A stretch of 64,000 nucleotides of DNA, taken from assembly GCA_945865665.1 (NCBI GenBank), contig CAMBEE010000001.1:71874-135873 (forward strand). The letters run 5' to 3'. Both the position numbers and the translations under genes were made by a program. The notes beneath the pieces were generated by a model. The model was not told the DNA's origin and made no database searches. It worked only from the letters and a program-made list of their open reading frames with translations. Positions 6,059-48,553 of the stretch are shown here, piece after piece (within the stretch, counting starts at the first letter, position 1; each line of letters starts with the position of its first letter). The stretch is from an uncultured Clostridium sp. (GTDB lineage: Bacteria; Bacillota; Clostridia; TANB77; CAG-508).

Positions 6059-6074
6059 AAAGGAAAGTAAAAGG

Positions 6075-11616: not shown

Positions 11617-11883
11617 ATGGAAAAAATAAAAGTAATAATTGCAGATGATATACAAGCTATTGTAGAAAGTAATAAACGAATTGTTGCATCATTTGATAAT
11701 GTTGAGGTTATTGTGACTGCATACAATGGCCAAGATGAGTATGAGATGATAATAAACTTACAACCAGATTTTGTAAGCAATAGAAGAGAGGTAGAAGTAG
11801 ATATGGAAAAGTGTAAAAAAAAGAATACAGAACATTGCACAAAATCAAAGTTTTGTGCAAAAAGGAATAGGAGTAAAATATAA
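11617..11883 (+). pseudogene. Truncated response-regulator receiver-domain fragment
   Basis: MEKIKVIIADDIQAIVE...IVTAYNGQDEYEMIINLQPDFV is a CheY-like receiver N-terminus. It runs into repeat R1 after about 60 aa. There is no output domain. Confidence 0.5.
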
Positions 11884-12731
11884 AACCATAGTTATATGGT
11901 CCTACCCATGAAATCTTGCTACTCCTTTAATAAAGCCTATTTTAGCATCTTATACTAACAACAAACTATACTACTTTTATATAAAAACCTCTTAAAATTG
12001 ATTCTGAAGCTTCATTAATTTAGCTTTTACTTGGTTGGATTTTTTTTCATTATTGTAACTACATATTTTCAAAAAAATTTTATATAACTTTAGATTATTT
12101 TATCAAAATTTCACAAATCCCCATATTTCAGTATTTTGCTTGATTTTGCAGACAACAAGTTATATGCCTTAAAAATAAAAACGCCTTAAAATCGATTCTC
12201 GTGCGTCACTTTTTTAGCCATTTTTAAGCATTTTTAATAAATGCCTAAAAATCAGCATTTCTACTTAAATAATATAATAAATATTAGTTTTTTTAATTTA
12301 CACATCTAATTTAAAACATATAACTTGTTAAATAAAATATTAAAATGTCTTAAAATCTATTTTGACGTGTCATAAATATAAAATTATATTATGGATTTGT
12401 AATCTAAAATTATATAATAGTTATTCAAAAATTTTTATAAAATTATAATGAAAAATTTATTTACAAACATTTTTAACAAATGTTCGTTTTTTAAAAATTA
12501 ATAATAAAAATTCACTTTACACAAAATTTTTAAATTTTTAATTATTAGATTTTAATTATAAAATTTTTTAAAATTCTAATTCTAAATTTTAATATTAATT
12601 TTTTGAAAAATTTTATTTTATATCTTTTAATAGTATAAAAAATTTCTTTATGTATTTATTTTTTTGTTTTAAAATTTATTTAAAATTTCTATTTTTGTAT
12701 TTTCTCAAAAATAGCCTATTCCCCTATTCCC
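11846..12731. repeat. Non-coding repeat module A (R-box + three degenerate about 60-bp units + about 400-bp unit)
   Basis: Homologous at about 75-90% to 13486-14208. It ends with ctcaaaaatagcctattcccctattccct. The units share cttaaaatcgattct. Confidence 0.8.
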
Positions 12732-12795
12732 TATTGATTTTTCTACGTATAGTAATTATTATTTATTGTTCTTCATTCTATTTATAAGTATGTTA

Positions 12796-12822
12796 AAAGA
12801 GATGGTACTACCATCTCTTTTA
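12796..12822 (-). terminator. Bidirectional rho-independent terminator
   Basis: aaaagagatggtactaccatctctttt is a perfect 10-bp stem with A/T runs on both sides, 3' of the 12864-13286 gene. Confidence 0.6.
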
Positions 12823-12863
12823 GTCTGAGTTAATTAAATATTATCTATTGAAGTTGAAATTTC

Positions 12864-13286
12864 TTATACTCCAATAAGATAAGTAAAAATTTGACCTTCT
12901 ATATACCTGTTTGAAAATGCAAAGTCATGATTCTTATCTAGAAGATATTTTAATTTAAGTTTATGCTGTTTACAGAATCTTTGCATATCTTTATGTGTAA
13001 TATGTAATTTAGAGCCATTTTCTAGAATGATATATTTATTAGCATTATCTGTTGGACATAACATACAAGGAGAAGCGAGATCTATACTAATAAATTTTCT
13101 TCTTCTAAAACCTATTTTTCTATAAGGTTTAGAAGAAAGTTCAATTAACAAATTGCTAATATACTTCTCAATTATATTCCAATCTTCTGGTGACCGAATT
13201 AGCTTTTTTTCTTCCTCCTTACGTTTTTCCTTTTCTAATTGTTCATGTTCTCTTAACTCAACTCTTAATTGTTTTCTTAAATTCAT
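12864..13286 (-). CDS. Hypothetical protein with a CxxC...HxxH...CxxH zinc-finger/HNH-like motif
   Basis: RBS AAGGAGG 8 nt before ATG. Contains SPCMLCPTD...HITHKDMQRFCKQH. Charged coiled-coil N-terminus. Flanked by repeat modules A and B. Confidence 0.45.
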   Translation of the reverse strand: MNLRKQLRVELREHEQLEKEKRKEEEKKLIRSPEDWNIIEKYISNLLIELSSKPYRKIGFRRRKFISIDLASPCMLCPTDNANKYIILENGSKLHITHKDMQRFCKQHKLKLKYLLDKNHDFAFSNRYIEGQIFTYLIGV

Positions 13287-13485
13287 AAAAAAACCTCCTT
13301 TAAATGTTGTATTTACAAAAGTGATAGTTATATATTAACACATTTTACATAATATTTCAATATAAATCAATTAAACTTCACATTTTTAGTATCTAATATT
13401 AAACTTAATTTCACATTTTATATATTGTTTAAGTGAATTTTTTATAAAAATTTTAGAAATTCAAAACAAGTTTTTGGTTTGTATT

Positions 13486-14208
13486 ATCAAAGTTTTGTGC
13501 AAAAAGGAATAAGGGTAAAAATACAGACCTCGCATTTAGGTCCTACCCAGTACTTTCTAGGCCTTCTAGCCATTAATACATATATTATTACTATTATTAT
13601 CTTATTATTTAATATTGCATCTTTTTTTATCTAATGTTATTCAACATCTTATATTACTTTATATATTTATCATTTATTTATTTTTAATCCTTAAATTTTA
13701 AATTTATATCTTAATATTTTTTATAATTTCAGATCCTATCTTATAATTTTATCAAAATTGCTCAAAACGCCTAAATGTCCATATTCGACGTATTTTGCAG
13801 ACAACAAACTTGTTTGATTAAATATAAAAATGTCTTAAAATCGATTTTAACGTGTCATAAATATAAAATTATATTATGGATTTGTAATCTAAAATTATAT
13901 AATGATTATACAAAAAAATTATTAATTTATAATGCAAAAATTTATTTACAAACAATTTTAACAAATGTTCGTTTTTGAAAATTACATATATAAAATTAAC
14001 TTTACACAAAATTTTAAAATTTTTAATTATTAGATTTTAATTATAAAATTTTTATAAATTCTAATTCTAAATTTTAATATTAATTTTTTGAAAATTTTTA
14101 TTTTTATCTTTTAATCATATAAAAAATTTCTTTATGTATTTATTTTTTGTTTTTAAAATTTATTTTAAATTTGTATTTCCTCAAAAATAGCCTATTCCCC
14201 TATTCCCT
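13486..14208. repeat. Non-coding repeat module B (R-box + unit + about 400-bp unit), a direct repeat of module A
   Basis: Module A is at 11846-12731. The same end motif cctattcccctattccct is present. Confidence 0.8.
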
Positions 14209-14235
14209 ACTTGTGATATATATTTAATTATAAAA

Positions 14236-14272
14236 AAACTGAGAATATCCTTTAATATTCTCAGTTTTTTAT
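14236..14272 (-). terminator. Bidirectional rho-independent terminator
   Basis: aaaaaaactgagaatatcctttaatattctcagtttttt has a 10-bp stem with a T-run. Confidence 0.6.
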
Positions 14273-14301
14273 AAAACCTAAAAAGCATCTAATATTGTAT
14301 A

Positions 14302-14688
14302 TTAACTTATGAATTTTATTTTTGCACCACATTCGCAGCAACTATGTTCATATGTATATACATAAGCATAGCATATTGGACAATGATAATGTCCTTCTTC
14401 ATCTTTTTCTTCTACACAGTATTCTTCTTGTTCATCTTTCATAATGTTTTCATACAATTTTTCGGCTTCTTTTTTCTCTTGTTCAGTTACTGGACTACAA
14501 TCTTCAAAATCTTTAAAAAAGGATTCTAATTCAGTATTATTATCAAGTAAAACTTTTTTAGCTTTAGGGTATAATTTCATCCATTGTCTTAATGTTTTCT
14601 TAGAATTTGAAAATTTTGTTAATATTTTTATGTCGATACCAATTGCCGATTTCGTTTCCTTTTTTATAATTCCTAGATATTTATCCAT
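14302..14688 (-). CDS. Hypothetical acidic protein with a C-terminal zinc ribbon
   Basis: Ends with HCPICYAYVYTYEHSCCECGAKIKF. No family assigned. It is the last gene of a - strand string that follows the toxN-family gene. Confidence 0.45.
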   Translation of the reverse strand: MDKYLGIIKKETKSAIGIDIKILTKFSNSKKTLRQWMKLYPKAKKVLLDNNTELESFFKDFEDCSPVTEQEKKEAEKLYENIMKDEQEEYCVEEKDEEGHYHCPICYAYVYTYEHSCCECGAKIKFIS

Positions 14689-14707
14689 AATATATTTACC
14701 TCCTTAA

Positions 14708-14929
14708 CTAATCAGTTTTCGAGTTGTTATTAAAGGTATTATTAAAATACCAACATGCCCATGGGATATATACAATGCTAATTCCTATTATTTTACTTGT
14801 GTCAAAAGGACTATTCAATTCAATTGGCACAATATAAACTACTGTAAGATATAACATTACTAGTCCCATATACATCAGAAATTTGTGCATAAAATTATTA
14901 TACTGTTTACTCATATTTTCCTCCTCCAA
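14708..14929 (-). CDS. Small 2-TM membrane protein, hypothetical
   Basis: Its only long ORF is closely packed between its neighbours. Hydrophobic segments LMYMGLVMLYLTVVYIV and IIGISIVYIPWACWYF. Confidence 0.35.
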   Translation of the reverse strand: MEEENMSKQYNNFMHKFLMYMGLVMLYLTVVYIVPIELNSPFDTSKIIGISIVYIPWACWYFNNTFNNNSKTD

Positions 14930-14944
14930 TATTAATTGCGTTGT

Positions 14945-15154
14945 CTACAGGTTACTCTTTACAACATCATCTTGAAAATTTTCACGTGCCATATTGAATT
15001 GGTCTGTATTTTGTTTAGTCTTTTCTCTAATTGCTTTATCCAATTCTTCCATACGAGCAGATGATACTGGTATTCTTGCTTTAGGTGGTGTACGAGATAC
15101 AGCTGACATGTAATTTAGTTTTACTTTTTTAATAGGTGTTTTCTTTTCTGACAT
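14945..15154 (-). CDS. Small basic protein, hypothetical (possible DNA-binding/RHH-like)
   Basis: 69 aa with a Lys/Arg-rich N-terminus and MEELDKAIREK. GGAGG upstream. Confidence 0.4.
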   Translation of the reverse strand: MSEKKTPIKKVKLNYMSAVSRTPPKARIPVSSARMEELDKAIREKTKQNTDQFNMARENFQDDVVKSNL

Positions 15155-15349
15155 ATTTATTCCTCCTTAAAATAATAATTTTACAATAGTTGCTTTATAA
15201 TAAAACTATGATGAAAAATAGGAAAGTAAAAATTCAATTAGCTTTTAGCTAAGATTTATGTGAATTATATCATTATTTGAGCTAAAAGTAAAGATAAACA
15301 CAATATGTATCCATTATGTGTTTATTTTCTTTCTTACTATATCATATAT

Positions 15350-15841
15350 TTATTTGATCGTTAACTGTTCTAATATTCCATCAATATCAGGAAAAATAAT
15401 ATTTTTCATTCCATGATTATATAAATTTAAAACCTTAGTAGCTTTATATATTATTTCTTCTTGCAATTTGTTTGACAGTTTTATAACAACTTTATTTTTT
15501 ATATATTGACTTTCTATATATTCCTCTGTTACTGGAAACATATTTTGTATTAAGAAAGCACTGTATGTATTTGCAACATTTCCAAAAACAATAGTATCAA
15601 TTGAAGGTTTCTTTCCTAATTTTATTTGTTTTTTTATTTTATTATCATAGATTCTTTGATACTTATCTACTTTTGTACTAACAGGAATAAACCAAATAAT
15701 ATTATTATATTCTTTACTTTTAAAGCAATAATAGCATGGTCTTTTATTTCCATTTTCTTTATTTTGCATTAGTTCTGGATCATCTATAACATCAAAAAAC
15801 GAATCTTTAATAAAATAAAAACATCCTATATCTATTTGCAT
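15350..15841 (-). CDS. ToxN/AbiQ-family endoribonuclease toxin (type III toxin-antitoxin / abortive-infection family)
   Basis: 163 aa. RBS AAGGAG 9 nt upstream. My alignment to AbiQ/ToxN is from memory: FYFIKDSFFDV..NKRP..IIWFIPVSTK..IDTIVFGNV..LIQNMFPVTEEYI against MKFYTI..FD.KV..RP..APLSSPK..GVINLNNMIPV. Preceded by tandem repeats and a hairpin. Confidence 0.6.
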   Translation of the reverse strand: MQIDIGCFYFIKDSFFDVIDDPELMQNKENGNKRPCYYCFKSKEYNNIIWFIPVSTKVDKYQRIYDNKIKKQIKLGKKPSIDTIVFGNVANTYSAFLIQNMFPVTEEYIESQYIKNKVVIKLSNKLQEEIIYKATKVLNLYNHGMKNIIFPDIDGILEQLTIK

Positions 15842-15868
15842 ATTTATATTACTCCTTATATTATGAGA

Positions 15869-15890
15869 GGCTTACCATTTCTGGTAAGCC
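15869..15890 (-). terminator. Hairpin between the repeat array and the toxin gene (leaky terminator / processing element candidate)
   Basis: ggcttacca-tttc-tggtaagcc is a perfect 9-bp stem with a 4-nt loop. There is no strong U-tract. Confidence 0.4.
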
Positions 15891-15897
15891 CCAATTA

Positions 15898-16006
15898 ATT
15901 TATTCACTCTCTCATTTGTTAGTCGCTCAAAGAGGCGGCGACAAATACATTTATTCACTCTCTCATTTATAACTCGCCAAAGAGGCGGCGACAAACACAT
16001 TTATTA
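15898..16006 (-). ncRNA. 2.2 tandem 51-nt direct repeats: candidate ToxI-like antitoxin RNA of a type III toxin-antitoxin system
   Basis: atttattcactctctcattt(gttagtcgctc/ataactcgcc)aaagaggcggcgacaaa(t/c)ac occurs twice, followed by a partial atttatt. Each unit contains a GC-rich hairpin gtcgc...gcgac. It lies immediately upstream of the toxN-like gene on the same strand. Confidence 0.5.
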
Positions 16007-16094
16007 AAAACAATGATGTTCTTAATTATTATATTCATAATAGCATGAAATATGTTACTTTGTCAATAATTTTAATAAATTTTCTTTTTAAAAG

Positions 16095-16160
16095 CAGAAC
16101 AACAATTTGGTTTGTATTATCAAAGTTTTGTGCAATAAGAGATAGGAGCAAAAATTGTTA
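16095..16160 (-). promoter_or_regulatory. R-box copy R3 (shared with R1 at 11846 and R2 at 13486); a promoter/leader for - strand transcription of the repeat-toxin unit is likely
   Basis: tttggtttgtattatcaaagttttgtgcaa is shared with R2. The reverse complement contains ttgcacaaaactttgataatac, a -10-like GATAAT. Confidence 0.35.
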
Positions 16161-16249
16161 TAATTTGTGTGATAACTTGTAATTTATCGAGATGATTGTA
16201 ACATAAAAGTTAGATATTTTCAAATCAATATATAACTTTCTAAATTTTA

Positions 16250-17686
16250 TTATGCATGTATAATATTTGTATTCTTTGAAATTTCACTATTAGTTGTTAC
16301 AATATCATAATTACTCAAATTATGAATATCCTTGTTTCCTGTTATTCTTGCAAAAGTTTTTAATTCATCATTTACAACATTAAAATAATTCTCTAACCTT
16401 TTACTGCTTTTTTCAATATTTAATCTTTTTCTTAATTCTGAATCTTGTGTTCCTACTCCTACCGGACACATTCCATTATTGCAAACTCTGTACTGTTGGC
16501 AAGCAATTGCCATCATTGCAGCTGTTCCAATAGCGATAGCATCTGCTCCCATTGCAATTGCCTTAGCAAAATCTGATGAAGTTCTTAGTCCTCCCGTTAT
16601 GACAAGTGATATATCTTCTCCATGCTCATCTAAATATTTTCTTGCTCTATATAGTGCATATATTGTAGGTACTGTTGTTGCATCTTTTATGATTTTAGGG
16701 CTTGCACCTGTTGCACCACCTCTCCCATCTATTGTAATAAAATCCGGCTTTGCAAAACAAGCAAATTCTAGATCCTCTTCTATATGTCCTGCTGCAAATT
16801 TCACACCAATTGGTCTTCCTTCTGATTTTTCTCTTAATTCATCTACTAGAGATTTTAAGTCTTCTTTTGTTTCAATCTCTTTAAATTTAGATGGACTAAT
16901 AATATCTTCTTCTACTTTTTTACCTCTTATTTTTGCAATTTCTTCTGTTACTTTTTCTCCGGGTAGGTGTCCTCCCATTCCTGGTTTTGTTCCTTGACCT
17001 ATTTTAATCTCTATTGCACTTACCTTTTTTAAGTTTTCATCCGTAACACTATATTTATTTGGCACATATTCAAAAATATATTCATAAGCATTTTCAAATT
17101 CTTCTGGTAATATTCCACCTTCTCCGCTACATATTGCTGTTTTTACATTTTTCGTTCCTATGGCCAAGGCTGTTTTGGCTTCCTTTGATAATGCACCGAA
17201 AGACATGTGTGTTACAAATACAGGTGTTTCTAAAATCATTGGCTTTTTCGCATTTTTACCAATTACTGTTCTTAGACTAACTTCTTCATCCTCAAAAAGT
17301 GGCATTTTGCTAAGTTGTCCACCTAGAATTAGAATATCATTCCAGCTAGTTACAGGTAACTTTGTTCCCATTGCTGAAATAATACTTTTTCCTGTAATAG
17401 CCATTGTATGGATATCTTCCATTCTTTGTTCTACTTCGTCTGTACTACGAGTATATTCTTTTAAATAGTTTTCTAGCTTATTTTCATTCTTTCTTGTTTC
17501 TTCTTTAGATTCTACTTTTTCTTCTTGTTTTGCATCTTCTTCTACTAATTTAAACATATTCTTTGGTGCAAAACACATTGGACATTTCCAATCATCTGGT
17601 AAGTCTTCAAATTTAACTCCCTCTTTTTCTTCATCATAAATATGTCCACATAATTGACATTTATATTTAGCCATTTTTTCCTCCAT
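16250..17686 (-). CDS. Rubredoxin-fused glutamate-synthase-domain (FMN/Fe-S) oxidoreductase
   Basis: N-terminus is rubredoxin ([11 protein letters not shown]...WKCPMC). The remainder is a GltS FMN-binding domain ([28 protein letters not shown]). Confidence 0.75.
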
Positions 17687-17702
17687 TTTTAATTTCTATA
17701 AG

Positions 17703-17730
17703 AGATACAAAAAGGTATCTCTTATTTTAC
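17703..17730 (-). other. Intercistronic perfect hairpin between rbr and the downstream oxidoreductase gene
   Basis: taagagatac-aaaaag-gtatctctta is a 10-bp perfect stem. The T-run is only on the + strand side. Confidence 0.35.
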
Positions 17731-17737
17731 TAATATA

Positions 17738-18277
17738 TTAATAATTTTCTGCTTTTATTTCAAAATATGCTTTTGGATGACTACAAACTGGGCAAATTTC
17801 TGGTGCTTCTTTACCAATTACAATATGTCCACAATTTCTACATTTCCAAATTTTATCTCCATCTTTAGAAAATACTAACCCATCTTCTACATTTTCTAAT
17901 AATTTTTTATATCTTTCTTCATGTTCTTTTTCTATCTTTCCAACCGCTTCAAATAAATATGCTATTCTATCAAATCCTTCTTCCTTTGCTTCTTTTGCCA
18001 TTCTATCATACATATCTGTCCATTCAAAATTTTCTCCTTCTGCTGCTGCTTTTAAATTTTCAGCTGTAGATGGTATATCTTCATCATGTAATAGTTTAAA
18101 CCATAATTTAGCATGTTCTTTTTCATTATCTGCTGTTTCTTGGAATATTGCTGCTATTTGCTCATATCCTTCCTTTTTAGCTTTGCTTGCAAAATAGGTA
18201 TATTTATTTCTTGCTTGTGATTCTCCTGCAAATGCCTCCATTAAATTTTTTTCTGTTTTTGATCCTTTTAATTCCAT
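17738..18277 (-). CDS. rbr: Rubrerythrin
   Basis: Ferritin-like diiron domain ([18 protein letters not shown]) plus a C-terminal rubredoxin-like CxxC...CxxC (WKCRNCGH...CPVCSHP). Confidence 0.85.
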
Positions 18278-18280
18278 TTT

Positions 18281-18679
18281 TTATTCCTCCTCATACTTTA
18301 TTTTAGATTTACATTCTTCACATATTCCATATAAAATGATACTGTCTACATTAGTAATTACACTCGTTTGATTATGGATCAATTCTTTTAGTTTTTCCTT
18401 CTTAAACTGATACATAAAATCAAAAACTTTTCCACATTTGTTGCATATTACATGATAATGTTCTTTATCAATATAATCATATTTGTCTGGTCCAGTTAAT
18501 ACTTTTATTTTCTTGATAGTTTTATTTTCCAATAAAACATTTAAATTTCTATAAACTGTACTTTTACTAATAGTTGGATTATCTTGATGTACTTTATCAT
18601 ATATTTGTTCCGCTGTTGGATGATTTAAATACTTAAATGTTTCTAGTATAATTTCTCTTTGCTTAGAATAGTTATTCAT
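18281..18679 (-). CDS. perR: Fur-family peroxide-responsive repressor (PerR-like)
   Basis: Fur family fold: DNA-binding helix STVYRNLNVL, HYHVICNKCGKV, and C-terminal CEEC. Located upstream of rbr. Confidence 0.75.
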   Translation of the reverse strand: MNNYSKQREIILETFKYLNHPTAEQIYDKVHQDNPTISKSTVYRNLNVLLENKTIKKIKVLTGPDKYDYIDKEHYHVICNKCGKVFDFMYQFKKEKLKELIHNQTSVITNVDSIILYGICEECKSKIKYEEE

Positions 18680-27745: not shown

Positions 27746-27879
27746 TTATCTACCTCTCAAATTTTTTCAATCAAAATTATGTTACAGTTCAGTAACATAA
27801 TTATAACATATTTTTAAAAATAAATAAATAAATTATTCCATTTTAATAAATTTTATTATATAATATCAATGAATGGAGT

Positions 27880-28878
27880 GTGAAACATATGATAAATCAT
27901 GAAGATAACCCAGAATACTTAAACTCATTTTTAGACTATACAATGACAATTTTAAATAAATCACCTAACACTGTTAAAGAATATAACTATGATTTAGCAA
28001 CATTTTTAAAGTTTATAAAAATGCACTTTGGTTTAACAACTGAAGAAGATTTTTCAAAAATAGAAATTAAAGATGTTGATTTAAATACTATAAAAAAAAT
28101 CAAATTAGACGATATTCATGCTTTTTTAAGCTATTTAACTACTACATACCACAGCAAAGCCGCAACTCGTGCACGAAAAGTATCAAGTATTAGAGTTTTC
28201 TTTAATTATTTATGTGCTAAAGCAAATCTAATTGAAAATAATCCAGCTCAAAATTTGGAAACTCCAAAATTAGATAGACGTCTTCCAAAATATTTAAGTT
28301 TAGAAGATAGTCAAAAACTTTTAGAAGTTACAGAAAATGAAGATAATAGAAATTATCAAAGAGATTATGCTATTATCACACTATTTTTAAATTGTGGTAT
28401 GCGTTTGTCTGAATTGGTTGGAATAAATATAAATGATATAGATTTTTCTGAAAATAAAATGACTGTTATTGGTAAAGGTAATAAAGAAAGAACAATTTAT
28501 CTAAATAAAGCCTGTGTAAGAGCCATTGGAAATTATTTAGAGGTTAGGCCGAAAGATGGTATTAAGACAGATAAATTAAATTCAAGAAAAGCTCTTTTTT
28601 TAAGTGAAAGACGCGAACGTATTAGTAAAAGAACGGTTCAACATATTGTTGATAAAGAACTAATGGCTGCGGGCCTTGATACAAAAAAATATTCAACGCA
28701 TAAATTAAGACATACTGCGGCTACATTAATGTATCAATATGGAAAAGTTGATATAAGGGCTTTACAGGAAGTCTTAGGGCATGAAAGTATTTCTACTACA
28801 GAAATTTATACCCATGTTGCCAATCAGCAAGCAAGAAATGCTATTGAAAGTAATCCATTAGCAAATTTCAATAAATAA
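27880..28878 (+). CDS. Tyrosine site-specific recombinase (XerC/XerD family)
   Basis: N-terminal SAM-like domain NTVKEYNYDLATFLKF. Catalytic region HKLRHTAATLMYQYG...LGHESISTTEIYTHV carrying the R-H-R-Y residues. Confidence 0.85.
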   Translation: MKHMINHEDNPEYLNSFLDYTMTILNKSPNTVKEYNYDLATFLKFIKMHFGLTTEEDFSKIEIKDVDLNTIKKIKLDDIHAFLSYLTTTYHSKAATRARKVSSIRVFFNYLCAKANLIENNPAQNLETPKLDRRLPKYLSLEDSQKLLEVTENEDNRNYQRDYAIITLFLNCGMRLSELVGININDIDFSENKMTVIGKGNKERTIYLNKACVRAIGNYLEVRPKDGIKTDKLNSRKALFLSERRERISKRTVQHIVDKELMAAGLDTKKYSTHKLRHTAATLMYQYGKVDIRALQEVLGHESISTTEIYTHVANQQARNAIESNPLANFNK

Positions 28879-29281: not shown

Positions 29282-29364
29282 TAAAATACCTCCTTATTGA
29301 TACAAACCTTTTAAGTTGCTATATAGATTATACAATGTTTTAATACATAATTCAACGTTTTCCT

Positions 29365-29658
29365 CTAAAAACTGGGAATTTTTAATTTGTCTCCTTCTTT
29401 TAAGTTTGCACTTGCTAAATTATTTACATTTTTTAATTCATTAACAACATACCTTATATCTTTACCTTCAAAGTATTTATTGTTCTCTAATTCTTCTTGA
29501 GCTATTGACCACAATGTATCTCCAGCACACACATATTCTTCCTTATATTTTGTTTCTACATTTGAATATGCTTTAGTTGCAAAAATTACTATTGAACTTA
29601 TTAAAATTGCTAATATTACATTACTTCTTATAAATTTTGTTTTATTTACTATTCTCAT
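29365..29658 (-). CDS. LysM-domain protein with an N-terminal TM
   Basis: YVCAGDTLWSIAQ...GDKLKIP is a LysM motif. Start at MRIVNK. Confidence 0.6.
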   Translation of the reverse strand: MRIVNKTKFIRSNVILAILISSIVIFATKAYSNVETKYKEEYVCAGDTLWSIAQEELENNKYFEGKDIRYVVNELKNVNNLASANLKEGDKLKIPSF

Positions 29659-29775
29659 TATAATTACCTCCAATTTGCATTAAGAATATTTGTTTGCTTT
29701 GTAAGATAATTATATACGAACACTTATTCTTTGTCAATAGATTTTAGAAAAAATGTTCGTCTTTTTTATTTTATC

Positions 29776-30009
29776 GTTACATTTCAGTAGGAAAAATCCC
29801 TGAAATACCTGTGAATGATATTTTGAATATATTTCGAATGTGACCAAAATAGTGTTACAAATTCTTAAGTAAATGCTCTAAAGGGTCCTGCCTTCGGGTA
29901 TTGTTAGAGTATTTACATTAGAATTTGTTAACATTATGTAGGGAACCTGAGAAAATATGAAAAATATCATTCACAGGTATTTCAGGGATTTTTATTACTG
30001 AACTGTAAC
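29776..30009. mobile_element. 234-bp MITE copy 1, with about 49-bp terminal inverted repeats and an 8-bp target-site duplication ATTTTATC
   Basis: Terminal inverted repeats are gttacatttcagtaggaaaaatccctgaaatacctgtgaatgatatttt and the reverse complement at the right end. The target-site duplication attttatc is at 29768-29775 and 30010-30017. A second copy lies at 35639-35872. Confidence 0.75.
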
Positions 30010-30012
30010 ATT

Positions 30013-30939
30013 TTATCTTTTAAAATTAAATCTATAATAATACGGTTTTATATCATTCAATAGTTCGTCCATATATACCATGTTTCCATAGCTATCTTGA
30101 ACCTTTAAATTTGGAAACGTTTTTAGCATTTTCTTGTCTCCCCAATATTTATAAATAAAATTAGATAATTTTTTATCATTATAAATATCATCATATTTTT
30201 GCATAATTATTTCTTTGTCTGGTACATTTAAATCATAATTATGTACCATTCTTACTAAAAAGAATGATAACGCTATTCCTGTTGCAATACAATCAACAAG
30301 TAGCAATATCGTAACTGTCGTTGCAAGTACCTCCAATGCTTTAACAGAAAGTTTGCTTTTTATACAATTTATTAGTCTGTCTATTCTAGGATTAAATGAT
30401 GCAATTAGATATAATGCTAGAAATCCCCAAAATATTGAAAAATAAACACATATTCTTCCATTTATATTAAGTGGCATGTCTGAATAGTCCCACCATTTTA
30501 CACCTAATAACATCTCACCTATCCAACTAACCAGATATTCAACAATTGAACCAACTATAAAACCTCCAATGAATAGTCGGGTATAGTTTTTTGAATATTT
30601 ATGTAAGAAAATAATCATTATTGCTGCACCTAGTCCATATATCGCACAAAATGGTCCATATAAAAAGCTCTGCCTACTTTCCCATACTCCTTTTGTTATT
30701 ATTCCGAATATTGTTTCTATTATATATCCTACTACACTATATATTATGAAGTATGCCAGTATTCTCCATACTGACAACCCCATAATTGTAAATTTTTTCT
30801 TTTGATTTGTAGTTTTAGTATTTGTTTGCTCCAATTTATTATCTATTTCCGCTTCTTTATTGCTTTTTTTTACTGTATTTTTTATTTCAGCTTCTTTACT
30901 GCCTTTTTCAACTTTATTTTTTATTTCATTTTCTTTCAT
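30013..30939 (-). CDS. Polytopic membrane protein with a repetitive charged N-terminus, hypothetical
   Basis: Five or six TM segments. The N-terminus has a tandem 13-aa repeat KVEKGSKEAEIKN / TVKKSNKEAEIDN encoded by a 39-bp duplication. Confidence 0.55.
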   Translation of the reverse strand: MKENEIKNKVEKGSKEAEIKNTVKKSNKEAEIDNKLEQTNTKTTNQKKKFTIMGLSVWRILAYFIIYSVVGYIIETIFGIITKGVWESRQSFLYGPFCAIYGLGAAIMIIFLHKYSKNYTRLFIGGFIVGSIVEYLVSWIGEMLLGVKWWDYSDMPLNINGRICVYFSIFWGFLALYLIASFNPRIDRLINCIKSKLSVKALEVLATTVTILLLVDCIATGIALSFFLVRMVHNYDLNVPDKEIIMQKYDDIYNDKKLSNFIYKYWGDKKMLKTFPNLKVQDSYGNMVYMDELLNDIKPYYYRFNFKR

Positions 30940-30963
30940 AACTTATTTTCACTCCATTATATT

Positions 30964-32736
30964 TTATAATAAATTTTTTAGTTCTTTTATCTTCTTGTTA
31001 TAAAATTCTATAGCACTCTTATATGTATCTTTACTTTCTAAATCCACATCAACCATTTTAAGTAAATCAATTGATTTTTTAGAACATCCTTGTTTAAGCA
31101 TTTCAATATACTTTTCAACAAAGCCAGGTTCTTTATTTAATATTTTAGATGCAATAGCAATAGCTGAAGAGACACCTGTACAATATTTATACACATAAAA
31201 ATCACTATAAAAATGAGGTATTCTTGCCCATTCATATTTAATTTGTTCATCTATATTAACATCAGGTCCAAAGTATTTTTTATTTAAATTATAATATAAA
31301 TTATTCAAGTCATCAGATGAAAGCATAACATTATTTTCAATTTTATCATGTACATCTTTTTCAAATTCTGCAAACATTGCTTGTCTAAATAAAGTTGCTC
31401 TAATCATTTCTAATAACTCATATAACAATTCTGCTTTTTTCCTATTATCTTTTTCATTTTTGATTTGATAATCACTTAATAAAATTTCATTAACTGTTGA
31501 CGCAACTTCTGCAACCATTATTGTATAATTAGCATTTAATACATTTTGCTCTCTATTTGAATAATATGAATGCATACTATGGCCTAATTCATGTGCTATA
31601 GTACTTACATCTCTTTTACTATTTACAAAATTAGTTAACACATATGGATGTACTCCATATACACCCATACTATATGCTCCTCCTCTTTTATTTGGTTTTG
31701 CATATACATCTATCCATCTATTATCAAAAGCTTCTTCTAATTTGTTTATATACTCTTTACCTAATATTTGTAGTGCATTTAAAACTTCTTGTTTCGCATC
31801 CTCAAATGTTATTTCATCTTTTCCTTGCTCACATGGATTTACATATAAATCATACATATGCATCTCGTCTAATTTAAGCATTTTCTTTTTTAATTTTATG
31901 AATTCGTAATTTACATTCATATCTTCATTAACCGCTTCTATTAGTCTTTCATATACCTTAAGACTTGCATCATCATTATCAACCGCCCTTTCTAAACTTG
32001 AATTATACTTTCTAAGTTTCGCTATAGTTGATTTTGCTTTTACATTTGAAATATACATTTCTGTAATTGTATTTATGAATTCACTATATTTGTTATACAT
32101 TAAATTAAAAGCTTGTTTTCTTACATTTTGGTCCTTGCTCTTTAAGTATAAAGTATATGTGCTATCTGTCATTTCAACTTCTTTACCGCCTTCGTCAATT
32201 AAAGTACCAAATTTAAACTCTGCATTTGTTAATGTATCAAATGTATTTTCTGGAGCAGATACTGTTTCTGAAAAGTTTGCAAGTATATTTTCTTCTTCTT
32301 TACTTAATATATGTTTTTTCTTTTCAAGTATATCATTTATATCTCTTGCATATCCATTGAATCTATCTTCTTTGGTGTATCCTCTTATTGCATTTTCGTC
32401 TGCATATGTTATTTCTGGTGTTATAAATGATGTTGCAACACTAAATTCTGTTCCTAATGTTTCAACTTCTTTAAATATTTTTATTCCTTCTTGGTTTGAC
32501 ATGTCTAAATGATATTTTAACATTCCATAAGCATATACTTTTTCAAATTTTTCTAGTGCTTGTTCATATAGTTTATAACAATTATATAAATTATCTGATG
32601 TATTACATAGTACCCCTTGATATTCTTTTATTTTTTCTAAAATATCTGTTATCTTACTTTTCTCTTTTTTGAATTGTTCTTCGTTTTCGAAGATGTCTTG
32701 TAAGTTCCAGTTGTATTTTTCTTCCATTTTTATCAT
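30964..32736 (-). CDS. pepF: Oligoendopeptidase F (M3B family)
   Basis: Zinc motif IAHELGHSMH. 590 aa, typical PepF length. Confidence 0.9.
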   Translation of the reverse strand: MIKMEEKYNWNLQDIFENEEQFKKEKSKITDILEKIKEYQGVLCNTSDNLYNCYKLYEQALEKFEKVYAYGMLKYHLDMSNQEGIKIFKEVETLGTEFSVATSFITPEITYADENAIRGYTKEDRFNGYARDINDILEKKKHILSKEEENILANFSETVSAPENTFDTLTNAEFKFGTLIDEGGKEVEMTDSTYTLYLKSKDQNVRKQAFNLMYNKYSEFINTITEMYISNVKAKSTIAKLRKYNSSLERAVDNDDASLKVYERLIEAVNEDMNVNYEFIKLKKKMLKLDEMHMYDLYVNPCEQGKDEITFEDAKQEVLNALQILGKEYINKLEEAFDNRWIDVYAKPNKRGGAYSMGVYGVHPYVLTNFVNSKRDVSTIAHELGHSMHSYYSNREQNVLNANYTIMVAEVASTVNEILLSDYQIKNEKDNRKKAELLYELLEMIRATLFRQAMFAEFEKDVHDKIENNVMLSSDDLNNLYYNLNKKYFGPDVNIDEQIKYEWARIPHFYSDFYVYKYCTGVSSAIAIASKILNKEPGFVEKYIEMLKQGCSKKSIDLLKMVDVDLESKDTYKSAIEFYNKKIKELKNLL

Positions 32737-32882
32737 CCTTTCTTTTGCATTTTATGTTTGAATTGTATCACATTATTAATTTGTTTGCTAGATTTATTTT
32801 ATAATTTTTAAATTATCACAACAAAATAAATTCCAATTTCATATAATATATAAATGTCGAATGAAAGGAGGTTTTGTAGATT

Positions 32883-33461
32883 TTGGAATTAGAACATAAA
32901 AAAATAGGATTTGTTTTAACAGGTTCATTCTGTACTTTTAGTAAAACAATTCCGAAAATAAAAGAATTAGTTAAAATGGGTGCTGAAGTAATTCCAATTA
33001 TGTCATATAATGCTTACAACTTAGATACTAAATTTGGAAAAGCCGAAGATTTTATAAATGAAATTGAAGAAATTACAAACAAAAAGATTATTCATACTAT
33101 ACAAGAAGCGGAACCAATTGGTCCTAAACATTTAACAGATATTATGGTAGTTGCTCCTTGTTCTGGTAATACAATGTCTAAACTTGCAAACGATATTATT
33201 GATACCCCTGCTACTATGGCTGTAAAATCTCATTTAAGAAATAATTTACCAGTTGTTATCGCTGCTTCTACTAATAATGCTTTAAGTGGCAATGCTTCTA
33301 ATATTGGTACTTTACTTAATAGAAAAAATTATTATTTCGTTCCTTTTAGACAAGATAATCCTATTACTAAGCCACGTTCTGTTGTTTTTGATTTTGATTA
33401 TCTTATAAAAACTATTGAGTCTGCTTTAGATGGAAAACAGATTCAGCCTATACTACTTTAA
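32883..33461 (+). CDS. Flavoprotein of the dipicolinate-synthase B-subunit (DpaB/SpoVFB, HFCD) family
   Basis: KIGFVLTGSFCTF...VAPCSGNTMSKLANDI is the family signature. No dpaA is adjacent. Confidence 0.55.
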   Translation: MELEHKKIGFVLTGSFCTFSKTIPKIKELVKMGAEVIPIMSYNAYNLDTKFGKAEDFINEIEEITNKKIIHTIQEAEPIGPKHLTDIMVVAPCSGNTMSKLANDIIDTPATMAVKSHLRNNLPVVIAASTNNALSGNASNIGTLLNRKNYYFVPFRQDNPITKPRSVVFDFDYLIKTIESALDGKQIQPILL

Positions 33462-33777
33462 TTAAACTTACATTATTATGAATAATATTTAAAATAGTGT
33501 ATAAAATTTTATTAATATACGGTATTGACAAAATTTTAAAAATTATGTTATACATTATACAGTAGATCAAGACTCCGGAAACCTACGAGGCCCGGGGTTG
33601 TTTTTTACTAAAAAATTCTACAAGGAGAAAAAATGAAAAAAAATTTTAAAAATGGGGTTTCCTAAAAATTATGAAAAATTATTAGAATACATAAGCTAAA
33701 TTAATTTTAAGCTTATGTATTCCGATTTTTGATTTCGACAAAATTTAATAAATTTGTGAGACAAATTCGGACTGTCC

Positions 33778-35496
33778 CTACTGTCCCAAAATCTCTTTTA
33801 ATTCTTCATTCCTTTTAACCTTCTTAGTGGTTGTCTTAATAAGTTCCTTATCAGTCAAAATCATATTCATAATATGTTTATATCTAGGAACAGTAGTATT
33901 AACCTCATTTTTTATTCTATTCCAAATAATATCTCTAATCTCATCAAAAGAAATATCACCATATTTTTGTTTTACTTCATCTTTATTATAAACAACCTTA
34001 ACAGAAAGTTTAACATCATTTTTATCAACTTCGTCAGGCATTCCAAATACCATGCATTCATCTATTAAATCTATTCTATTAACTAGTGTTTCTATTTCCT
34101 CTGGGAAGATTTTTTTACCATTTTTAAGAACTATCATATTCTTTTGTCTACCTGTTATAAAAATAAAGCCATCTTTATCAATATAACCTAAATCTCCAGT
34201 GTAGAACCATCCATCTTTAAGTACTTTATTTGTTTCTTCTTCGTTTTCATAGTAACCAAGCATTACATTTGGTCCTTTTGCACGTAACTCCCCTATACCG
34301 TTATCGTCTTTATTTACAATTTCAACAGTCACATTTTCCATTGGAACTCCTATTGAACCTGTTCTTGATTTATACATATTTTCTGCTGCAATAACTGGTG
34401 ATGTTTCTGTTAAACCATATCCTTGTGCTAAATTTATTCCTAAATCTATAAATCCTTTTTGTATTTTAGGGTCTAATGGTGCTCCACCTGAAATTACAAA
34501 TCTCATTTTTCCGCCTAATTGGTCAATTAACTGTTTGAATAATTTTCTTCTAATATCTATATGGAATTTTAATAAGAAGTTACTAACTCTTATAGCATTT
34601 TTTATAAGTTTTGTTTTTCCCTGTTTATCAATTTCTTTTACCACTTTATTGTAGATTGCTTCTACCAATAGTGGTACGCCAACAAATACAGATACTTCAT
34701 ATTCTTTTAAGTTTTGTGCCACATATCTTAATCCATCTGGGAATGATGTCCTAGCACCACATGCTAACATAACGATTAGACATGTTGAACCAAATATATG
34801 GTGCATTGGTAAAAATGCTAAATTTGAGTCTGTGCTTCTAATGTCTTCAACTCTTTGCATTGCATATACATTTGATGCAATATTTTTTTGTGATAGCATT
34901 ACAGCTTTTGATTTTGATGTTGTTCCAGATGTGAATAACAAAATATTCATTGCATTTTCATCTATTTTTGCTGATATATATTCTTTGTTTCCTTCTTCTA
35001 GTAATTTTTGTCCTTCCTCTTTTAATGTATTTATATCTTTATATCCTGCTAGTTTTGACATACAAATATATTCTTTAACATTTGTATTGTTTCTGTTTTT
35101 TATTTCTTCTATTTTTTCTATGTATTTTTCGTCAAAATATATTGCATCTGCTTTACTTCTCATTAATGAGCTTTCTAGTTCATCTATTTGTAAATCTTTG
35201 TCTAATGGAATTGATACTATTCCGCCTAATAGACTTGTTAAGTGTCCCAGTGCCCATTCATATCTATTTCGTCCCAAAATGGCTATTCTTTTATTTTTAA
35301 ATCCCATACTGTATAATTTAGTACCTAATGCATTTATTTGTTCTAAAAGCATTTTATAAGTTATATTTTCGTATGTTTTGTTTTTTCCTTCTTGGTGTTT
35401 TACTATAAATGCTATATTGTTTGCATATGTTTTGGCTGAGTTGTATATTAGTTCTTTTATGTCCTTAAATTCTTGGACTATTTTTTCTTTTTTCAT
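33778..35496 (-). CDS. Long-chain fatty-acid--CoA ligase (AMP-binding enzyme)
   Basis: AMP-binding motif LLFTSGTTSKSKAVMLSQKN. Also YGLTET and GWFYTGDLGYID. Confidence 0.85.
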   Translation of the reverse strand: MKKEKIVQEFKDIKELIYNSAKTYANNIAFIVKHQEGKNKTYENITYKMLLEQINALGTKLYSMGFKNKRIAILGRNRYEWALGHLTSLLGGIVSIPLDKDLQIDELESSLMRSKADAIYFDEKYIEKIEEIKNRNNTNVKEYICMSKLAGYKDINTLKEEGQKLLEEGNKEYISAKIDENAMNILLFTSGTTSKSKAVMLSQKNIASNVYAMQRVEDIRSTDSNLAFLPMHHIFGSTCLIVMLACGARTSFPDGLRYVAQNLKEYEVSVFVGVPLLVEAIYNKVVKEIDKQGKTKLIKNAIRVSNFLLKFHIDIRRKLFKQLIDQLGGKMRFVISGGAPLDPKIQKGFIDLGINLAQGYGLTETSPVIAAENMYKSRTGSIGVPMENVTVEIVNKDDNGIGELRAKGPNVMLGYYENEEETNKVLKDGWFYTGDLGYIDKDGFIFITGRQKNMIVLKNGKKIFPEEIETLVNRIDLIDECMVFGMPDEVDKNDVKLSVKVVYNKDEVKQKYGDISFDEIRDIIWNRIKNEVNTTVPRYKHIMNMILTDKELIKTTTKKVKRNEELKEILGQ

Positions 35497-35638
35497 TTTT
35501 ATTTTCCTTCCTTAAAATACGAAATCTGTCAAAATTATTTTTAACAGATTAGTCTTGTTAGCAGTTGAATTAAATTACAATTGCTTTTACAATAATACAC
35601 TATTTTTAAAAATTTGTCACTAGTCTTGGTGGTCAGTT

Positions 35639-35872
35639 GTTACAGTTCAGTAAGGAAAATCCCTAAAATACCTGTGAATGATATTTTGAATATATTTCTA
35701 ATGTGACCAAAATAGTGTTACAAATTCTTAAGTAAATACTCTAAAGGGTCCTGCCTTCAGGTATTGTTAGAGTATTTACATTAGAATTTGTTAACGTCAT
35801 GTAGGAAACCTGAGAAAATATGAAAAATATCATTCACAGGTATTTTAGAGATTTTTCCTACTGAACTGTAAC
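35639..35872. mobile_element. 234-bp MITE copy 2, same orientation, with 8-bp target-site duplication GGTCAGTT
   Basis: About 95% identical to copy 1. The target-site duplication ggtcagtt is at 35631-35638 and 35873-35880. Confidence 0.75.
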
Positions 35873-35924
35873 GGTCAGTTATTATTTTAAAATTTCTGCA
35901 TATTCATTAAAGAGGTGAATTTAT

Positions 35925-37424
35925 TTGAGACAAAAAAGTAAACTATTTCTAATAAATGGTGCCATACTAACAAGTACATCACTACTTATGAAATTTGCAG
36001 CACTTATTTTCAATATATACATATCAAATCAAATAGGTTCAGAAGCGGTTGGTGTATTCAGCTTAGTAATGGCTGTATACCTATTTTTCATAACTGTTGC
36101 AACATCTGGATTAAACATTGCTGTAACTGTTATTGTTTCAGAAAAGTTTGCTTTAAATAAAAATAAACAAGCTATAAAGGCAATACGTACTTGTATATTT
36201 TTCAGCTTATTATTAGGAATAACTGCAGGTGGACTAATTTTATTTTTTTCTGATTTTATTACAAATAAATGCTTACACAATATGGTTTCTTCTAAGCCAT
36301 TATTTTATATTGCTATTGGCTTACCTTTTATTGCAATGTCTTCTTGTATCAGTAGTTATTTTACCACTGTACGAAAGGCTTATAAAAATGCAATTACCCA
36401 AGTTTTTGAATTTACAATTAAAATGATTGCAACAATAATATTGCTAAAAATAAATATAGCTAATGGTGTAGAAGCGGTTTGTATTTCGCTTATTTTAGCT
36501 GATGTAATTGCAGAAGTATGTTCTTTTACATTGATTTTTATTTTGTATATTATAGATATAAGACTTAAAAAATTGGAAGATGTCCGTTCATTTGGACAAA
36601 GATTTAATATTTTAAAAATTGCTTTTCCAGTAGCTGTTACATCATATATACGCTCTGGGCTTTCAACTTTAAAACAATTGATAATTCCTACCCAACTTGA
36701 AAAGTCTGGAATTTCTTGTAGCAGAGCTCTTTCACAATATGGTATGATTAATGGAATGGTACTTCCAGTTATAACATTTCCAACTGTTCTTACAGATTCT
36801 TATAGTATGCTTTTAATACCAGAATTTTCAACATATGTAGCACAAAAAAATTATAAAGCAATTAACTATGTTGCAAATAAGATTTTTAAAATTACTTGTG
36901 CATTTTCTATGTGTGTTTGCAGTATATTTTTTATATTTTCAAATGATTTAGGGCTTGCTATTTATAACAATATTGAAACTGGGTACTTTTTTAAGGTATT
37001 TACTCCATTTATATTTTTTATGTACATGGACCATATTATCGACTGTATTTTAAAAGGCTTGAACAAACAGTTTGGTGTTATGTGCTGTAATATTTTAGAT
37101 TTAAGTATTACTACTTGCTTTATTTATTTTTTGCTTCCTGTTTTAGGCATTAAAGGATATGTACTTTCTATCTTTTTTAGTGAAGTATTAAATTTTAGCA
37201 TTAGCCTTTTTCAGTTGTATAAGTATTCTAAAATAATGCCTAATTTAATAGACTGGATTATTGTTCCTTTAATTTGTAGCTTAATTGCTTATTTTATAAC
37301 AAATATTTTCCACTTTAACTTAATTACTCTTACCATTAATTTAATTTTTAATGTATTGTTTTTTGTTTTAATTTATATAATAAGTTTCTTTATAATAAAT
37401 TTACTTAGACAAAAAAATAGCTAG
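35925..37424 (+). CDS. MOP-superfamily flippase (polysaccharide biosynthesis / SpoVB-MurJ-Wzx-like)
   Basis: 14 predicted TM segments. The N-terminus LINGAILTSTSLLMKFAALIFNIYISNQIG is typical of PST-family proteins. Confidence 0.7.
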   Translation: MRQKSKLFLINGAILTSTSLLMKFAALIFNIYISNQIGSEAVGVFSLVMAVYLFFITVATSGLNIAVTVIVSEKFALNKNKQAIKAIRTCIFFSLLLGITAGGLILFFSDFITNKCLHNMVSSKPLFYIAIGLPFIAMSSCISSYFTTVRKAYKNAITQVFEFTIKMIATIILLKINIANGVEAVCISLILADVIAEVCSFTLIFILYIIDIRLKKLEDVRSFGQRFNILKIAFPVAVTSYIRSGLSTLKQLIIPTQLEKSGISCSRALSQYGMINGMVLPVITFPTVLTDSYSMLLIPEFSTYVAQKNYKAINYVANKIFKITCAFSMCVCSIFFIFSNDLGLAIYNNIETGYFFKVFTPFIFFMYMDHIIDCILKGLNKQFGVMCCNILDLSITTCFIYFLLPVLGIKGYVLSIFFSEVLNFSISLFQLYKYSKIMPNLIDWIIVPLICSLIAYFITNIFHFNLITLTINLIFNVLFFVLIYIISFFIINLLRQKNS

Positions 37425-38418: not shown

Positions 38419-38446
38419 TTTAAATACCTCTTTCTTTCGAACGAAT

Positions 38447-38541
38447 TTCAACCAATGGGGACGTTCTTAAATTGGTTGAAATTCCTTTAAATTATTTTAT
38501 TTTTTTATTCAACCAATTTAAGAACGTCCCCATTGGTTGAA
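38447..38541. other. Perfect 34-bp inverted repeat (27-nt spacer) filling the rfbC-rfbB intercistronic gap
   Basis: ttcaaccaatggggacgttcttaaattggttgaa at 38447-38480 and its exact reverse complement at 38508-38541. Each arm is itself a 10-bp hairpin (ttcaaccaat/attggttgaa). Confidence 0.6.
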
Positions 38542-38542
38542 T

Positions 38543-39136
38543 TTATAAATTACTAAATAAATCTGTTTCTTTTAATTCTTTAAGTGATGGCCATTTTCCG
38601 TCTTTTTCAGATGTTAATAAATCTTCTGGTTTTAAATCACCCATAGGCCATTCAATTCCTATATCTGGGTCATCCCATTTAAGTCCACCTTCTGATTCAT
38701 GGTTATAAACATCATCACATTTATAAGCGAATTCAGCTTCATCTGATAAAACTAGAAATCCATGTGCAAATCCTTTTGGTATCATAAACATTTTTTTATT
38801 TTCTTCTGTTAATACAACACCTTCCCATTTTCCATATGTTTTGCTTCCTGGTCTTAAGTCGACTGCAACATCAAATACTGAACCTTTAATACATCTAACT
38901 AATTTTGATTGTGTATTTTCTTTTTGGAAATGTAATCCTCTTAAAACACCTTTTTTTGATTTTGATTGATTATCTTGTACAAAGTCATAATTTAATCCTA
39001 ATTCTTCAAAATCAGCCTTGCTGTACGTTTCCATAAAGTATCCTCTGTTATCACCAAATACTGTTGGTTCTACAATACATACACCTTCAATAGATGTATC
39101 AATTTTTTTAAATTTTCCCATTTTAATTATCTCCAT
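38543..39136 (-). CDS. rfbC: dTDP-4-dehydrorhamnose 3,5-epimerase
   Basis: GVCIVEPTVFGDNRGYF...GLHFQ...QSKLVRCIKGSVFDVAVDLR is the RmlC cupin fold. The start is uncertain: the track uses TTG at 39157; ATG alternatives are at 39136 and 39121. Confidence 0.9.
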   Translation of the reverse strand: MEIIKMGKFKKIDTSIEGVCIVEPTVFGDNRGYFMETYSKADFEELGLNYDFVQDNQSKSKKGVLRGLHFQKENTQSKLVRCIKGSVFDVAVDLRPGSKTYGKWEGVVLTEENKKMFMIPKGFAHGFLVLSDEAEFAYKCDDVYNHESEGGLKWDDPDIGIEWPMGDLKPEDLLTSEKDGKWPSLKELKETDLFSNL

Positions 39137-48447: not shown

Positions 48448-48553
48448 AACCATTATACCCTTTTCTATAAAATATAATTTTATTATATATTTTTATTATA
48501 TATTTTTATTATATATTTTTAAAATCGTAAAATCAATGTTTTTATTTGGAAAT

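Follow-up and report, generated by a model that had tools for sequence, protein, structure and literature searches.

Bacterial MITEs are non-coding, multi-copy, intergenic elements, mostly shorter than 200 bp and up to about 400 bp long, which have terminal inverted repeats, are flanked by target duplications, carry no transposase gene and can form a long stem-loop (PMC3184786). Correia/NEMIS of Neisseria and RUP of S. pneumoniae are examples treated in the same review (PMC3184786). Two further types of bacterial repeats described there are relevant for comparison (PMC3184786): the REP/BIME palindromes, which are G+C-rich hairpins of about 35 bp without target duplications, and bcr1 of the Bacillus cereus group, a transcribed element of about 155 bp. 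The latter has direct repeats of 5 bp and forms a cruciform with two stem-loops; its genomic distribution is not conserved, and its secondary structure is kept by compensatory changes (PMC3184786). The element analyzed here is very probably of this ordinary kind, a bacterial MITE. A literature search returned no description of such an element in Clostridia, and the family seems to be undescribed.

The window, i.e. the whole stretch of 64,000 nucleotides that was analyzed, comes from an uncultured Clostridium sp. and has a G+C content of about 26% (about 74% A+T). A repeat search of the window detected two copies of the element, which are 94% identical over 234 nt and lie 5863 nt apart from start to start. 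The original prediction had proposed two 234-bp copies of about 95% identity, and its coordinates proved to be exact. The features of the two copies are as follows.

29776-30009, plus strand: MITE copy 1, 234 bp, full length (repeat search of the window)
35639-35872, plus strand: MITE copy 2, 234 bp, in the same orientation as copy 1 (repeat search of the window)
29776-29833, plus strand: left arm of copy 1 (58-nt terminal inverted repeat; complementarity of 90% with the right arm)
29952-30009, minus strand: right arm of copy 1 (58-nt terminal inverted repeat; complementarity of 90% with the left arm)
35639-35696, plus strand: left arm of copy 2 (58-nt terminal inverted repeat; complementarity of 90% with the right arm)
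35815-35872, minus strand: right arm of copy 2 (58-nt terminal inverted repeat; complementarity of 90% with the left arm)
29887-29898, plus strand: central stem-loop CCTGCCTTCGGG at the palindrome tip of copy 1 (sequence reading and fold)
29768-29775 and 30010-30017: duplications ATTTTATC flanking copy 1, perfect over 8 bp (read directly)
35631-35638 and 35873-35880: duplications GGTCAGTT flanking copy 2, perfect over 8 bp (read directly)

The ends of the element read 5'-GTTACAGTTCAG..., and the GTTAC.../...GTAAC termini are the exact limits of similarity between copies of the family. A 21-mer common to all four arms is found four times in the window, against 0.00 expected. The terminal inverted repeats had been put at about 49 bp; the arms are longer, at 58 nt, and the palindromic character extends through the whole element. 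As the element matches its own reverse complement at about 78% identity over the full 234 nt, the entire element, and not merely its ends, is an imperfect palindrome. Copy 1 folds as one long hairpin of -113.9 kcal/mol, compared to -42.6 ± 4.1 kcal/mol in shuffles (z = -17.6). The tetraloop UUCG, which had been described as conserved, is present in copy 1 as C(UUCG)G, and copy 2 has UUCA at this position; in the alignment of full-length copies, TTCG occupies the center of the element in 34 of 38 family members. The element is A+T-rich and contains no credible ORF, only spurious ORFs of 30 and 37 aa overlapping copy 1, in agreement with the original suggestion that the interior has no ORF.

The direct reading of ATTTTATC and GGTCAGTT in the sequence bore out the proposal that perfect 8-bp duplications flank both copies. 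In order to place these repeats in a broader context, we aligned 38 full-length copies of the family, which represent about 28 distinct sites. The 8-bp flanking repeats are perfect in 20 of the 38 copies and have a single mismatch in another eight; poor flanking matches were seen at the copies L005_5019, L014, L025 and L007. The sequence of the duplication varies between sites, and 8-bp duplications are found at about 20 different sites. When other repeat lengths were tried on the same 38 copies, perfect flanking repeats were found in none at k = 5, 6, 7 or 10, and in one at k = 9. As a control, left flanks were compared to the right flanks of different copies, and 3.5% of these pairs matched with at most one mismatch. 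The target 8-mers are 77% A+T, which is near the genome composition. Homologous loci in relatives that carry the element and lack the duplicated flanks were not seen, and at the loci examined the element does not lie inside a larger annotated IS. The claim that the copies arose by transposition and are not a structured host RNA is thus upheld by their dispersion, by the site-specific duplications and by the fact that only a length of 8 fits; the lack of coding capacity, of an Rfam family and of an enclosing larger IS further supports the assignment. Taken together, the element is very probably a bacterial MITE, that is, a non-autonomous DNA transposon without a gene of its own.

The distribution of the family was analyzed by an exact-word scan of 185,579 species, each represented by one genome. 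The exact 21-mer AATACCTGTGAATGATATTTT was found at 31 loci in only five genomes, all from uncultured human-gut Clostridia: the Hadza MAGs CAKOWP and CAKOUU, UMGS1516, HGM13651 and Clostridium sp. 28_17. A BLAST search of the element against the loci of these carriers returned full-length copies at 90-97% identity as well as partial copies. There are at least 14 full-length copies in CAKOWP, four in CAKOUU and at least six in UMGS1516, in addition to remnants; the family is thus multi-copy and dispersed in several genomes. The terminal arms are conserved across 44 arms of 22 copies. Additional copies were found in human-gut metagenome contigs using a slightly degenerate pattern, and this metagenome scan returned copies, remnants and two chance matches in coding sequence (L074 and L087). 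A scan of viral contigs gave no match, and BLAST searches of plasmids and phages with the element and with a 60-nt arm gave only chance matches (E ≥ 1). Beyond the five gut Clostridia species, no sequence relatives of the element were detected. One CAKOWP locus, L023, is syntenic with positions 29355-34269 of the window at about 95% identity, and an orthologue of copy 1, with the same site and the same duplication, is present in both L023 and strain L047.

Copy 1 is located between two minus-strand genes, a LysM-domain gene (29365-29658, with its true start at 29658) and a CmpB-like gene (30013-30939). It directly follows the stop codon of the CmpB-like gene (30013-30015, minus strand). As this TAA stop lies inside the right-hand duplication, the CmpB-like protein was not altered by the insertion. 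Copy 1 had been placed downstream of the LysM gene; it is actually upstream of it, since the LysM gene is on the minus strand and its predicted promoter is close to the left end of the element.

29709-29737, minus strand: predicted promoter of the LysM gene, TTGACA-17-TATAAT, a perfect match to the sigma-70-type consensus, 39 nt from the left end of copy 1

Copy 2 is located in the divergent intergenic region between an AMP-binding gene (33778-35496, minus strand) and the gene of a MOP flippase (35925-37424, plus strand), whose product matches the Polysacc_synt/MatE domain. It ends 52 nt upstream of the flippase start, in agreement with the position originally given to it. The best promoter-like site of the flippase gene (35565-35593, plus strand) is to the left of copy 2 and is weak, with 9 of 12 consensus positions; if this site is used, copy 2 would be part of the flippase 5' leader. 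Judging from these positions, effects of the copies on the expression of their neighbors are possible: the hairpin of copy 1 could separate the LysM promoter from the CmpB-like gene as a barrier, and the flippase leader could acquire a 234-nt hairpin from copy 2.

A scan of the window for the terminal 12-14 nt of the element identified a third copy, overlooked in the original prediction, of which only a short remnant is left.

27773-27804: third insertion site, with a 16-nt remnant GTTACAGTTCAGTAAC at 27781-27796 that keeps both termini, flanked by AAAATTAT and ATAATTAT

The two flanks of this remnant are identical at seven of eight positions. The remnant adjoins a gene of a Phage_integrase-family tyrosine recombinase (27880-28878), which is 0.9 kb from copy 1. 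The state of the three sites in other strains was analyzed using exact-protein look-ups with the neighboring epimerase and LysM proteins, which provided 20 other strains. The 16-nt remnant is also present in strains L042-L050. At the site of copy 1, the full element was found among the strains only in L047, and additionally in the MAG locus L023; in seven strains a 36-nt remnant, GTTACAGTTCAGTAGGAAAAATCC-CTGAACTGTAAC, is left between two intact duplications, and in L045 merely the last 13 nt of the element are left. At the site of copy 2, full-length orthologues were found in five strains (L032, L035, L037, L039 and L041), a 75-nt remnant in L033, L036, L038 and L040, and a 6-nt remnant in L034. 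The window sites are thus polymorphic, with a full element or a deleted remnant. Shortened forms were also found at other loci, namely a 63-nt mini-element in L016/L019 with ATATGTAT on both sides, and a 146-nt form in L015.

The deletion junctions of the remnants are located at microhomologies of 3-8 nt (CTGAA, TATTTT, TTTTTATT, TCAGT and GTA), which are short direct repeats present in the full element. The preserved duplications and the microhomology junctions suggest that the insertions are old and decaying. Long palindromes are known to be unstable and to be eroded by deletion during replication. Excision by a transposase would remove the termini, whereas the remnants retain up to 54 nt of arm and are probably better explained by slipped-strand or hairpin-stimulated deletion.

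None of the strains examined, not even the more divergent L044, lacks an insertion at any of the three window sites; each site has the full element or a remnant, which also indicates that the insertions are old. Consequently, no clean empty site was recovered at the window sites in the 20 strains. One element-free allele was found elsewhere, in L094, for the insertion site at L013; its junction has diverged, and the precise empty site cannot be reconstructed. At L013 (3040-3100, MAG CAKOWP), the upstream gene runs on into the MITE copy and takes from it the last four codons and the stop (…NGEVTVQ and stop); in the element-free allele (L094, 10150-10200), the same gene ends in …EEWKTGKK and stop. 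Among L100-L119 (about 370 kb), of which only L110-L119 are syntenic with the window and L100-L109 are from other genomic contexts, there is no copy and no insertion polymorphism, and the length differences are runs of N. On balance, we consider it probable that the family is now largely inactive in the lineage of the window. A different situation was observed at L005 (5019-5251, CAKOWP), a MITE copy with non-matching 8-mers, in place of which CAKOUU (L008, 4625-5824) has a 1.2-kb segment encoding a 348-aa protein with a Fic motif, HPFSDGNGRMSR, read by eye; this difference suggests an element-associated deletion or replacement.

The comparison of the 38 copies revealed an unusual pattern of variation in the arms. 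Within the outer ~28 nt of the arms, positions 13-28 are far more variable between copies than the core: the pairwise identity is 62% vs 95% in the core for the UMGS1516 copies, and 82% vs 96% for the CAKOWP copies. Within a single copy, the two arms nevertheless mirror each other, with 0-3 mismatches in 16 (none in L007, L025 and L054, and one in L014). In the hairpin as a whole, 17 of 77 pairs show compensatory double changes (RNAalifold and pair counting), compared to 5.2 ± 1.4 in column shuffles; none of 500 shuffles reached 17, and sliding the partners by 1-3 columns gave 5-7. The mismatches between arms are roughly balanced (38 G.T and 28 A.C), which argues against selection on one RNA strand and for a process at the DNA level. 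Arm-to-arm gene conversion, template switching within the palindrome and a required pairing of the arms during mobilization are candidates for the origin of the mirrored arms. The arm variants AAGG.. and AGGA.. were found in both left/right arrangements among the copies, a pattern that recombination between the arms, with inversion of the core, would produce. The possibility that the variable arm segment serves as a target "guide" was also considered and rejected, since the score for the copies' own flanks (9.63) is close to that for the flanks of other copies (9.44 ± 0.94).

If a DDE transposase simply recognized double-stranded ends, a mirrored variation of the outer arms would not be expected. 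In view of this variation, and as no transposase with matching ends was found in any of the representative genomes searched, the element may instead be an orphan foldback transposon, whose arms would pair or be copied from each other during mobilization. We regard this as unlikely; if it is true, it would imply hairpin-dependent transposition or a regeneration of the ends that still produces 8-bp duplications.

Another explanation, that the copies form a family of structured ncRNA genes or of host regulatory hairpins kept for their RNA fold, has the very stable fold (-113.9 kcal/mol) and the compensatory changes in 17 of 77 pairs in its favor, and it has a precedent in bcr1 of the Bacillus cereus group, which is mobile, is transcribed and shows compensatory changes (PMC3184786). 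The site-specific 8-bp duplications, however, show insertion by transposition, and the G.T and A.C mismatches (38 vs 28) lack a one-strand RNA signature. Moreover, Rfam 15 gave no match at the gathering threshold in the entire window; the best sub-threshold match to the element was MIR821, a generic long plant miRNA hairpin, at 53 bits compared to a gathering score of 249. No promoter or terminator signals above the shuffled expectation were found inside the element, and its copies decay by deletion in many strains without being replaced. An RNA family is thus very unlikely.

HUH enzymes and tyrosine or serine recombinases are not known to make fixed 8-bp target duplications. It is equally improbable that an HUH-type (IS200/IS605-like) enzyme moves the element as a single-stranded DNA hairpin of the foldback type, or that the element is a recombination hairpin on which the tyrosine recombinase encoded at 27880-28878 acts. 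Such mobility would agree with the palindromic nature of the whole element and with arms that stay complementary within copies despite the strong variation between copies, and the Phage_integrase-family gene is indeed only 0.9 kb from copy 1 and beside the 16-nt remnant. No TnpA- or TnpB-like ORF, however, adjoins any copy, no recombinase gene is found beside the copies in loci with ORFs listed, and the integrase gene near copy 1 is in conserved synteny, unchanged in strains that have only remnants.

The same orientation of the two window copies and the 5.6 kb of genes that they bracket could suggest a composite transposon of 6.1 kb, with the copies as its ends and the CmpB-like, PepF, flavoprotein and AMP-binding genes as its cargo. 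We rejected this idea as extremely unlikely: both copies are flanked by perfect duplications of their own, the outermost 8-mers (ATTTTATC to the left of copy 1 and GGTCAGTT to the right of copy 2) do not match, and the intervening synteny is kept where one or both copies are reduced to remnants. As the two duplications differ, the copies must have been inserted independently. Finally, the notion that the 8-bp repeats are coincidences of AT-rich DNA and that the copies arose by duplication or recombination, for which one could invoke the A+T content of the genome (about 74%) and the poor flanking matches at L005_5019, L014, L025 and L007, can practically be dismissed, given that 28 of 38 copies have 0-1 mismatch vs 3.5% in the cross-copy control, that only k = 8 works, that GGTCAGTT is not AT-rich and that the homology between copies stops exactly at the element ends.

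According to the preferred explanation of a bacterial MITE, the element would be moved by a transposase supplied in trans, which would recognize the terminal inverted repeats (ends 5'-GTTACAGTTCAG...) and cut the target with an 8-bp stagger; repair of the stagger would then generate the 8-bp duplications. The fixed stagger points to an enzyme of the DDE type. The family would be old and mostly inactive in the window lineage, where internal deletions between short direct repeats would erode the long palindromic copies.

We searched for an autonomous partner of the element in several ways. Only host genes, and no transposase-like ORF, were found beside solo or truncated arms (L016, L018, L023, L008, L029, L025 and L053). 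An nhmmer profile of 44 arms, run over all loci, detected no two arms at a distance of 0.6-4 kb other than those of neighboring independent copies. About 1.2 Mb of related DNA was also scanned for structure, and no stretch of 600-3500 bp bracketed by inverted repeats (14 nt or longer) together with an 8-bp duplication was found. The 60-nt arm, whose consensus is GTTACAGTTCAGTAGGAAAAATCCCTGAAATACCTGTGAATGATATTTTGAATATATTTC, gave only chance matches in a BLAST search of 7.3 Gb of plasmids. Altogether, the window, the loci, the genomes, the metagenomes, the viral contigs, the plasmids and the phages yielded no autonomous IS with matching ends, and mobilization in trans is for this reason an inferred step. 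It is important to mention that these searches needed an exact 21- or 22-mer or similarity at the BLAST level, which a diverged parent could escape, and that short-read MAGs, which often lose multi-copy IS elements, limit them further. Contig ends fall inside the element at L002, L003, L009, L010, L057, L068, L075, L080 and L099; as the element breaks assemblies in this way, a multi-copy autonomous IS may also be hidden.

Several other features of the window and of related loci were observed during this analysis. A second repeated palindrome is located at 38444-38544, just upstream of a dTDP-glucose dehydratase-like gene; it has two inverted arms of about 37 nt, which are 97% complementary and separated by a 27-nt spacer, and each arm is itself a hairpin (TTCAACCAAT...ATTGGTTGAA). 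Its unit of about 34 nt recurs in the same MAGs (L071 10084-10233, L017 79-112 and L022 3763-3926), and it resembles a dispersed family of REP-like hairpins. Near 12 kb the GC skew reverses its sign, and the G+C content is only 20% at 12-14 kb, within a region (11800-16200) where the repeats D2 (298 nt, 12322-12619 and 13807-14104, 89-91%), D5, D6 and D11 are located upstream of three small minus-strand ORFs. The ORF at 15350-15841 in this region has a weak ToxN-like Pfam match, below the cutoff (E = 0.002), and a 73%-similar paralogue in L023 (3605-4087). The region may consist of repeated toxin-like cassettes or be origin-proximal. Compared to positions 32804 and 33461-33726 of the window, L023, which belongs to a MAG of a sister species, has two extra segments (3603-4398 and 5067-7454): one contains a 160-aa ORF related to the window ORF 15350-15841, and the other, of 2.4 kb, contains a gene of a 627-aa secreted protein and a small HTH gene. 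A Fur-rubrerythrin-rubredoxin/glutamate-synthase-like cluster is located at 16250-18679; its exact rubrerythrin protein occurs in 4997 blocks of the collection, in quite different contexts, several of them beside large serine recombinase, Mob_Pre and TnpV genes, and the cluster looks like a horizontally spread cassette. At 46261-48453, the 135-nt (45-aa) repeats D1/D4 correspond to six ChW (clostridial hydrophobic W) repeats in a GH25 muramidase gene.

These results add a MITE family to a poorly known lineage of uncultured low-G+C human-gut Clostridia; the family is well defined by its exact ends, the length of its duplication (8 bp), its consensus and its occurrence at about 20 independent sites. 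The element is useful for annotation, because it breaks short-read assemblies at contig ends, and it can be used as a strain marker, because strains differ in whether they carry full or remnant alleles. The remnants found at identical sites provide a clean natural example of the erosion of long palindromes by microhomology deletions, and the mirrored, hypervariable part of the arms poses a minor puzzle in transposon biology. These results leave the general picture of MITEs unchanged; the mirrored arms, together with the absent partner, might be the sole point of specialist interest.

When compared to known systems, the element resembles the bacterial MITEs in its size, inverted repeats, duplications, lack of a transposase gene and long stem-loop. 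Correia and RUP duplicate TA, and an identity with such TA-duplicating MITEs (IS630-type) was ruled out, as the duplications here are 8 bp long and of varied sequence; the element differs from Correia and RUP in this 8-bp duplication and in its host range of five uncultured gut Clostridia species. A REP/BIME-type identity was likewise ruled out for an A+T-rich element of 234 bp with 8-bp duplications. With bcr1 and the group A repeats, the element shares a MITE-like nature in Firmicutes, flanking direct repeats and compensatory changes (17 of 77 pairs here), whereas it differs from bcr1 in its length of 234 bp, its 8-bp duplications, its single long hairpin and the lack of an RNA-strand mismatch signature. 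The original prediction took the 8-bp duplications as a pointer to a parent IS from a family that produces them, and such a parent would be a candidate partner of the element. Duplications of 8 bp (or 8-9 bp) are made by the IS families ISL3, IS256, IS6/IS26, IS1595 and IS66, with which the element is compatible only in its duplication length and in having terminal inverted repeats. The typical ends are GG... in ISL3, IS6, IS256 and IS1595 and GTAA in IS66, and the end GTTAC... has no obvious resemblance to those of any of the five. MITEAba12 of Acinetobacter is an IS-derived non-autonomous element of about 113 bp, with inverted repeats, a 9-bp target duplication, a limited clade and a proposed parent transposase. 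The element described here is similar to MITEAba12 in its inverted repeats, its target duplication and its restriction to a limited clade, and it is longer and has a duplication of 8 bp.
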